Assembly: GCA_963754655.1 (NCBI GenBank)
Contig: CAVWGN010000001.1
Location: forward strand, 2,240,001-2,304,000
Direction: 5' to 3'
Source: an uncultured Chlamydiae bacterium
Lineage (GTDB): Bacteria; Chlamydiota; Chlamydiia; Chlamydiales; Parachlamydiaceae
DNA length: 64,000 nt
In this document: one piece after another, positions 2,039-2,540 of the stretch
Layout: every line of letters begins with the position of its first letter
Numbering within the stretch: the first letter of the stretch is position 1
The notes under the pieces: generated by a model
Told to the model about the DNA's origin: nothing
The model's input: the letters and a program-made list of their open reading frames with translations, nothing else
Databases searched by the model: none
Position numbers and translations under genes: made by a program

Positions 2039-2540
2039 CTAGTACTCAACCACATTAGTTTTTGCCTATGGGAATGGTTTTAAATCCCTATGCGTTAAGG
2101 TAAGAGATGGGTGTAGGCTAACGTGCCGCATTCAGTCGCCACGCCGCTTCGCTCTGGGCTCTATGAGAGGGTTCATGGACCCACCGTTCGGTCGCCCTCC
2201 GGGCTCGGTCACGGTGGGCTAGAATCAGTCGTCCTACGGACTCTAGCGCCAATGTAGAAGTCATTGAATGTTAGGTAAGGTTTTTCATAATAATGCTGCT
2301 AGAATGCTAGTCAAGGCGTTTTGATAATGCCGCTAGAGTCCGTAGGACGACTGATTCTAGCCCACCGTGACCGAGCCCGGAGGGCGACCGAACGGTGGGT
2401 CCATGAACCCTCTCATAGAGCCCAGAGCGAAGCGGCGTGGCGACTGAATGCGGCACGTAGCCTACACCCATCTCTTACCTTAACGCATAGGGATTTAAAA
2501 CCCATTCCCATAGGCTAAAACTAATGTGGTTGAGTACTAG
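2039..2540. mobile_element. Giant palindromic non-autonomous element, type A arms, complete termini (copy A1)
   Basis: About 210-bp near-perfect inverted arms starting CTAGTACTCAACCACATTAG and ending CTAATGTGGTTGAGTACTAG; related arms at 21.4-21.9 kb and 57.2-60.7 kb; no credible CDS. Confidence 0.85.

Follow-up and report, generated by a model that had tools for sequence, protein, structure and literature searches.

Several described systems bear on the repeats considered here. REPINs, which are associated with RAYT/TnpA-REP enzymes, consist of two inverted hairpin units on either side of a spacer, have symmetric arms, are present as many extragenic copies, occur in tandem arrays, accompany Y1/HUH genes flanked by the same hairpins and are targets for IS insertion (PMC3116915, 10.1101/2022.05.22.493013, PMC3333891, PMC8266576); they are about 100 bp long, with REP units within 130 bp. 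Symmetric REPINs are known (10.1101/2022.05.22.493013, 10.1101/119743), and the available text of Bertels and Rainey 2011 (PMC3116915) leaves open how that symmetry returns. The TnpA-REP enzyme binds REP, cuts inverted REP and may prime synthesis (Ton-Hoang 2012, PMC3333891; Corneloup 2021, PMC8266576). TIRtrons/TIRYTs and MITEs (Di Nocera et al. 2013, PMC3733652) offer a second parallel, in which long terminal inverted repeats enclose a tyrosine transposase gene and are found also as dimers that lack the gene; TIRYTs are mostly of TnpA-Y1 subclass 2.1 (PMC6006769), and arm co-variation is not treated in the available text of PMC3733652. That template switching or recombination erases differences between the arms of inverted repeats is established (PMC5941160, PMC8604942, PMC7202029, PMC8794818), and Lavi et al. 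2018 (PMC5941160), citing the Ripley model, describe imperfect bacterial repeats that are perfected by arm copying, with multi-base changes made in one step.

The window analysed here is the whole stretch of 64,000 nucleotides, and it lies on a contig (C1) of a 3.16-Mb genome (G000) that is 96.7% complete. Scanned for long local inverted repeats, this genome yields 236 loci, of which a few are gene-bearing duplications; the long near-perfect palindromes among them, about 230 in all, are of modular build, with cores (A, B, C, D and G) and outer shells that are often nested. These elements are 250–650 bp long with arms of 120–290 bp, they comprise two inverted hairpin units flanking a spacer, and many copies are extragenic; the arms of families A and B are built alike, with three hairpins separated first by a 16-nt and then by a 6-nt linker.

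In their behaviour the elements resemble long REPINs or MITEs. Their size and their linked enzymes, which are not group 2 or 3 RAYTs, place them outside the REPINs, from which they differ also in having three-hairpin units and, in at least one family, 9-bp target duplications and outer shells. The linked enzymes resemble TnpA-Y1 subclass 1.2 (Quentin et al. 2018, PMC6006769) in their motifs, their length of about 150 aa and their few divergent copies; the available text of that paper names no REP for this subclass, but the genes described here have hairpin modules on either side, and these modules make up large repeat families. The repeats of PMC5941160 occupy fixed orthologous sites and have short arms, averaging about 6 bp, in contrast to those described here, which are mobile, come in families of dozens of copies and allow the process to be counted from copy to copy in a single genome. 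Our search of the open literature, with subscription papers lying outside it, found no measure of arm-to-arm homogenisation in a REPIN or MITE population and no description of these repeats.

These are gene-less mobile palindromes whose arms share mutations specific to the copy, probably because a tract of one arm is now and then synthesised anew with the other as template, by template switching or inverted-repeat conversion. The mechanism that we favour is thus a known process, and it is the setting that is unusually informative: the repeats provide a natural test bed for how mobile hairpins keep their symmetry, since with long arms and many copies mirrored and one-arm mutations can both be counted.

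Palindromes of the window

The features referred to below are as follows (window coordinates; palindromes have no strand).

2037–2542: A1, a 506-bp palindromic repeat with a family A core inside an outer shell
2039–2042 and 2537–2540: CTAG at either end of the A1 shell
2037–2247, plus strand: left arm of A1, 211 bp, in the order shell, hairpin block 1, variable linker, hairpin 2, linker, hairpin 3
2163–2178 and 2221–2226: linkers of the A1 left arm, the first of 16 nt and variable, the second of 6 nt
2179–2220 and 2227–2247: hairpin 2 and hairpin 3 of the A1 left arm
2248–2331, plus strand: A1 spacer, asymmetric, 84 nt, kept between copies and defining sides X and Y
2332–2542, minus strand: right arm of A1, 211 bp, differing from the left arm at 3 of 212 columns
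16344–17009: B1, family B, arms 16344–16569 and 16784–17009 with three direct spacer units between them
21450–21885: A2, arms 21450–21643 and 21692–21885, 48-nt spacer
30789–31444: B2, family B, with a mirrored spacer array (U' U' V U)
48581–49149 (limits approximate): B3, family B, with an internal partial duplication
57223–60741: A3, a family A palindrome interrupted by two recent insertions; arm pieces at about 57223–57345, 58671–58716, 58765–58863 and 60708–60741, spacer 58717–58764
57346–58670, plus strand: IS256-family element in the left arm of A3, ORF 57422–58624 (NF033543, 381 bits against a cut-off of 150)
58864–60707, plus strand: 1844-bp IS-like element in the right arm of A3

The block limits of A1 were placed by sequence anchors, and the palindrome is wider than the extent of 2150–2430 given by the first-pass annotation. 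Because the CTAG at its ends is itself palindromic, it cannot be read as a target duplication. A single arm of A1 folds no better than shuffled sequences (z −0.07). A1 has a sister copy at C1 2679067–2679567 that is 98% identical. In A2, a linker unique in the genome is present in either arm, and the outer 45 bp hold six of the seven differences between the arms. The IS256-family element in A3 is one of eight genome copies at 100% identity, and the 1844-bp element has 10 full-length copies at 98–100% as well as one partial copy, several of which adjoin hairpin modules; its ORFs encode 102 and 439 aa, the longer of them without an NCBIfam match.

The window also contains two ORFs made of 75-bp (25-aa) tandem repeats (42248–44247), the repeat being among the most frequent sequences of the genome, and a 695-aa minus-strand ORF (32076–34163) with a long low-complexity repeat region near 33030–33480.

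The first-pass annotation had quoted five strings, three from type A and two from type B palindromes, as evidence that copies differ from one another while the arms within each stay perfectly complementary. All five are present with their reverse complements at the places given, the A motifs at 2159–2185 and 2394–2420 (A1), 21557–21581 and 21754–21778 (A2) and 57295–57321 and 58828–58854 (A3), and the B motifs at 16454 and 16887 (B1) and at 30851 and 31370 (B2). The motifs of A3 lie 1.5 kb apart because an IS256 copy has inserted in one arm. In the 3.16-Mb genome the A2 and A3 strings occur nowhere beyond the two arms of their own locus, and that of A1 is found also in either arm of one sister copy (C1 2679187/2679422). 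The type B strings, presented as evidence of the same kind, are indeed mirrored, but they are subfamily variants with 24 and 46 genome occurrences and are therefore weaker evidence than had been supposed. Perfect complementarity, likewise, holds for the quoted stretches but not for whole arms, which are near-perfect with 3–7 differences per approximately 170–230 bp (A1, 3 of 212 columns; A2, 7 of 194; B1, 4 of 227; B2, 3 of 172). Between copies, the left arms of A1 and A2 differ at 17 of 163 positions.

Arms group by locus

Arms were paired throughout the genome and oriented by their spacer, which gave 36, 126 and 33 pairs for families A, B and C respectively and no pairs with the family D query. 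Retaining pairs with a single ordinary spacer left 33, 91 and 33, of which 27, 55 and 32 loci have both arms long enough for distances. The arm statistics thus cover families A, B and C, with family D and the shells E, F, H, I and O set aside.

At these 27, 55 and 32 loci the divergence between the two arms of a copy is 2.4% in A, 1.1% in B and 2.9% in C, and that between arms of different copies is 10.9%, 3.1% and 4.2% respectively. In all three families same-side and opposite-side distances are equal, and in none of them does random re-pairing of arms match the observed within-copy similarity (0 of 10,000). The two arms are identical at 5 of 27 A loci, 18 of 55 B loci and 3 of 32 C loci. When whole-element copying is simulated with no exchange between arms, within-copy distances equal opposite-side distances and both greatly exceed same-side distances, which is the reverse of the data, so that descent alone fails as an explanation.

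Arm trees for the three families, the kind of check that the first-pass annotation had put forward for its reading, group arms by locus rather than by side. Cherries join arms of the same locus in 16 of 20 cases in A and 22 of 32 in B, and side labels change on these two trees more often than in any of 1,000 shuffles. The family C tree backs locus grouping only weakly, as 6 of its 20 cherries are of the same locus, 10 join different loci on the same side, and side-label changes are at shuffle level; the distances and the permutation test for C agree with those for A and B. The 16-nt linker of family A has 20 haplotypes at 25 loci: arms differ by a mean of 0.68 within loci and 5.3 between them, and at 21 of the 25 loci they are separated by at most one change. 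We also considered that the linker is copied from a local or distant guide DNA, but rejected this on occurrence counts, as its haplotypes have 1–7 genome occurrences each, which fit family copies only.

It is very improbable that assembly or polishing made the arms alike. The suspicion draws on the sequencing runs, since the soil run that contains the organism, at a depth of about 3, gave contigs too short to bridge the two arms of an element and two other runs are almost empty. However, arm differences persist at most loci, the arms of A3 hold a common private motif in spite of lying 1.5 kb apart, and an independently assembled relative, G016, has the same pattern. Nor would collapse of the arms produce a hairpin bias confined to mirrored changes or same-side differences that are inherited, both of which are described below.

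Mirrored and one-arm mutations

Changes private to a copy were counted at 28 A, 65 B and 31 C loci. Substitution events of this kind number 31 in both arms and 71 in one arm, and 28 and 61 of them respectively are still private in a genome-wide check. About 0.12 double hits are expected, which for practical purposes excludes the idea that selection for a long and perfect hairpin brought about the paired changes through stepwise compensatory mutation. Compensation has been invoked for REPIN spacers (PMC3116915), but here multi-base and indel changes are mirrored as well, and most copies tolerate mismatches, so selection does not purge mismatched ones. The first-pass annotation had dismissed compensation and argued that one arm is templated from the other, through a hairpin ssDNA intermediate, template switching or intra-element conversion; the counts bear out the former, and the latter, as to the copying though not as to the route, is supported by locus grouping, equal side distances and the private both-arm events taken together. 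Its reading needs refinement in that many mirrored differences that separate copies go back to a single mirroring in an ancestor and have since been inherited as subfamily variants. A context-based count of private changes (48 mirrored in A) was inflated by neighbouring common variants and has been set aside.

The two classes of mutation, mirrored and one-arm, are distributed differently. One-arm changes are evenly spread, with 40 of 71 in the hairpin blocks that make up 52% of sites, and mirrored changes avoid hairpins (6 of 31), so that mirrored to one-arm ratios are 6:40 in hairpins and 25:31 outside (Fisher P=0.0006; odds ratio 0.19, interval 0.06–0.55). In the strict set they are 6:34 and 22:27 (P=0.003; P=0.013 when stratified by family), and family C alone shows the same trend, which is not significant (2:18 and 7:12).

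In toy models whose parameters are our own choices, unbiased conversion gives odds ratios of 0.5–0.8 when every copy survives, mirroring at each duplication 0.02–0.25, conversion from intact donors only 0.06–0.31, and unbiased conversion combined with hairpin selection, 4–33% of copies being kept, 0.07–0.39. Without lost ancestors, unbiased conversion therefore touches the limit of the observed interval or falls outside it, which counts against the model that we favour. As the model with lost ancestors reproduces the bias, the bias is no proof that an enzyme gates the copying, and our use of it as proof of enzyme-linked mirroring was withdrawn after this control. Read through these models, the hairpin bias indicates that mirrored changes are mostly older ones that have been filtered for intact hairpins.

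A common hairpin variant of family C is one-sided in 14 loci, with 13.0 expected for independent arms (F about 0), and so conversion after the last insertion looks rare at that site, a further point against the favoured model. Separately, 18 of 62 arms have the same C-to-T change at column 113 of the family C alignment, a recurrent hot spot that is random with respect to side and background. Methylation was considered as its cause and rejected, GCGG and GAGCGG not being depleted genome-wide.

Extent of copying within the arms

Copying covers tracts, not whole arms. The copies at C1 467987 and 2321527 have a common one-sided outer tract and yet carry mirrored differences in both linkers, and those at C1 1536832 and 1941771 share a one-sided C/T difference. 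Since sister copies inherit such one-sided differences, elements must move together with their asymmetries, and mirroring spans only parts of the arms. The proposal of arm copying therefore stands with the qualification that copying is occasional and limited to tracts, and that elements also move whole with their asymmetries intact.

Arm copying also ignores the origin of the DNA, as it is seen in the Y1-derived core, in the outer shell and in spacers that have become inverted. Mirrored changes are present in the shell DNA of B and C. Among the B arrays (n=43; 34 direct and 9 mixed), four have a normally unpaired spacer that now forms an inverted pair around another unit, and in three of these four U-V-U arrays each U unit, on both sides, has a private change; B2 is one of these arrays, a single private change being found in all three of its U units, on either side. 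Overall, the repeats behave as expected for concerted evolution, with arms more alike than descent explains, no side lineages, and tract-limited copying of multi-base and indel changes.

There is no centre-to-edge gradient: private mirrored changes are not nearer the spacer, and at spacer-adjacent sites in family A the arms match no better than farther out. Such a gradient would be expected of a simple intramolecular fold-back, and its absence weighs against the favoured model. Unique flanking DNA mirrored into both arms would reveal copying in place; among the rows listed for 157 loci it is absent apart from a few ends that are short or diverged, the longest being 39 bp. Duplicated loci with shared flanks, at which a spacer inversion would mark an intermolecular switch, gave few candidates among the matches listed.

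These observations bear on a further alternative, in which an arm is rebuilt at each mobilisation through a single-stranded hairpin intermediate, so that copies would be born symmetric and then decay. Models with mirroring at each duplication produce a strong hairpin bias, as given above, the even spread of one-arm changes resembles post-insertion decay, and PMC3116915 singles out as a key issue how a REPIN becomes symmetric again once an asymmetric intermediate has been excised. Nevertheless we consider this explanation improbable, as sister copies inherit same-side asymmetries, mirroring is patchy inside an arm, and the model mirrors just 20–23% of non-hairpin changes where 45% is observed.

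Family C provides another argument against rebuilding at mobilisation. Nine-bp direct flanks are found at 18 of the 26 C loci having both ends (11 of them exact), which points to movement by a DDE enzyme. DDE-type movement copies each arm unchanged, but C, with its 9-bp target duplications, is still partly mirrored. The family fits a MITE, with terminal inverted repeats, target duplication and no transposase gene. No autonomous partner was found, 0 of 32 C-type left ends leading into a long element, and among 24 listed pairs of C-type ends the span is 316–325 bp. In the target duplications 9 of 162 bases are mismatched, a figure too noisy beside the arm divergence of 2.9% for the duplications to serve as a clock.

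Two other structures were seen in the genome. At C1:1323799–1324341 the family A spacer occurs twice, in mirror orientation, around an insert of approximately 115 bp that has short terminal repeats with CTAG on either side and resembles a fold-back product. At C1:1102500–1103997 there is a gene-bearing inverted duplication with highly similar arms of approximately 700 bp and a short centre.

Y1 genes and proposed mechanisms of copying

Of the nine Y1/HUH matches in the genome, two are fragments, one is a typical IS200/IS605 enzyme, and the remaining six are full-length genes of a different type. These encode proteins of about 150 aa with the motifs of TnpA-Y1 subclass 1.2, DH[IV]H, WQ and Y---Q--HH, as read by eye from the ORFs against Table 1 of PMC6006769; gene L007 has DHLH, and in L006 the motif ends YH. 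Five of these WQ-type proteins were scanned, and all pass the IS200 model while falling far under the RAYT cut-off (NF047646; 22–25 bits in four and no match in one, against a cut-off of 80).

Five of the six full-length genes adjoin hairpin repeats of the families studied. L002 lies between inverted arms of approximately 170 bp related to family C, L004 lies between B-type arms, and L007 is beside an A palindrome. The 422-bp G elements at C1:960405–960826 and C1:972914–973335 have B-like arms facing the other way, and the spacer of the first retains the last codons of the B-linked Y1 gene, as in an internally deleted derivative. Judged by these sequence relationships, the cores derive from the ends of subclass-1.2 Y1 transposase genes. 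The Rfam motif Acido-Lenti-1 matches B arms right at threshold (in B2 at 30912–30966 and 31267–31321) and is found just below the gathering score at the flank of the Y1 gene at L004:1309–1363. It stands without a function in Table 1 of PMC2864571, and may be a DNA signal.

Because TnpA-REP binds and cuts in the manner outlined above, a rival model suggests itself in which mirroring in place is gated by an enzyme. A subclass-1.2 Y1 protein would bind the intact hairpin module and nick the inverted arm on the same strand, and the freed 3' end would fold back and be extended on the intact arm, so that an arm would need intact hairpins to serve as donor. This is a possibility of low probability that is nevertheless consistent with several observations: mirrored private changes avoid hairpins, with a trend also in C, which is seemingly moved by a DDE enzyme; donor-biased models fit well (mirrored fractions of 2–10% in hairpins and 13–59% outside them); most of the full-length Y1 genes lie beside hairpin repeats; and for E. 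coli TnpA-REP the 3'-OH left by cutting has been proposed as a primer (PMC3333891). Against this, plain conversion with selection and turnover yields equal statistics, no fixed start of the tracts is visible, our literature search found no activity reported for subclass 1.2 enzymes, and the related genome G015 has such Y1 genes yet little mirroring. Were the model true, and we hold it to be doubtful, a subclass-1.2 Y1 nuclease would act as a proof-reader that repeatedly rewrites each palindrome from its functional arm; this would amount to directed, enzyme-gated gene conversion, would explain how REPIN-like elements regain symmetry, and would be a first function for subclass 1.2.

In the model that we favour, a stretch of one arm would occasionally be rewritten with the other arm as template, while the copy resides in the chromosome and a fold-back forms on single-stranded DNA at the fork. 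Toy models suggest a rate of, very roughly, 50–400 times the point-mutation rate per site. Corrected copies would then spread through whole-element transposition, and as multiplying lineages would be filtered for intact hairpins, old mirrored changes would accumulate in linkers, with recent one-arm changes falling everywhere. The apparent absence of SbcCD would allow long fold-backs to persist. We infer this process from a comparison of the population of copies in one assembly.

Related genomes

A1 has matches in 4 of 40 relatives. From G015 and G016 we examined 19 stretches picked by A1 matches, 13 of which yielded an arm pair. In G016 (7 loci) arm divergence is 5.5% within copies and 11.8% between them. 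In G015 (6 loci) it is 20% within copies, as against 21% for same-side and 23% for opposite-side arms, with inner hairpins that are side-specific. Mirroring is therefore no obligatory property of the hairpin module, and the fact that homologous arms in G015 are hardly homogenised counts against the favoured model.

In E. coli, SbcCD removes long fold-back structures (PMC3733652). An sbcD search gave no match in G000 or in four relatives, with a G000 control of 13 of 14; the sbcC model gives only short ATPase-type hits in G000, and mutS is present. We considered missing SbcCD as the cause of the contrast between G000 and G015 and rejected it, since 0 of 5 genomes has an sbcD match, G015 being 57% complete.

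Similar Y1 genes are found in all five relatives searched. G015 provides a natural point of comparison, its copies of the module being hardly homogenised, and together with the two classes of mutation it makes host template switching and enzyme-gated copying testable against each other. In the A-like elements of the G015 stretches L029–L038, the two arms keep distinct inner hairpins and linkers across loci, yet some variants of hairpin 2 are shared within a locus.
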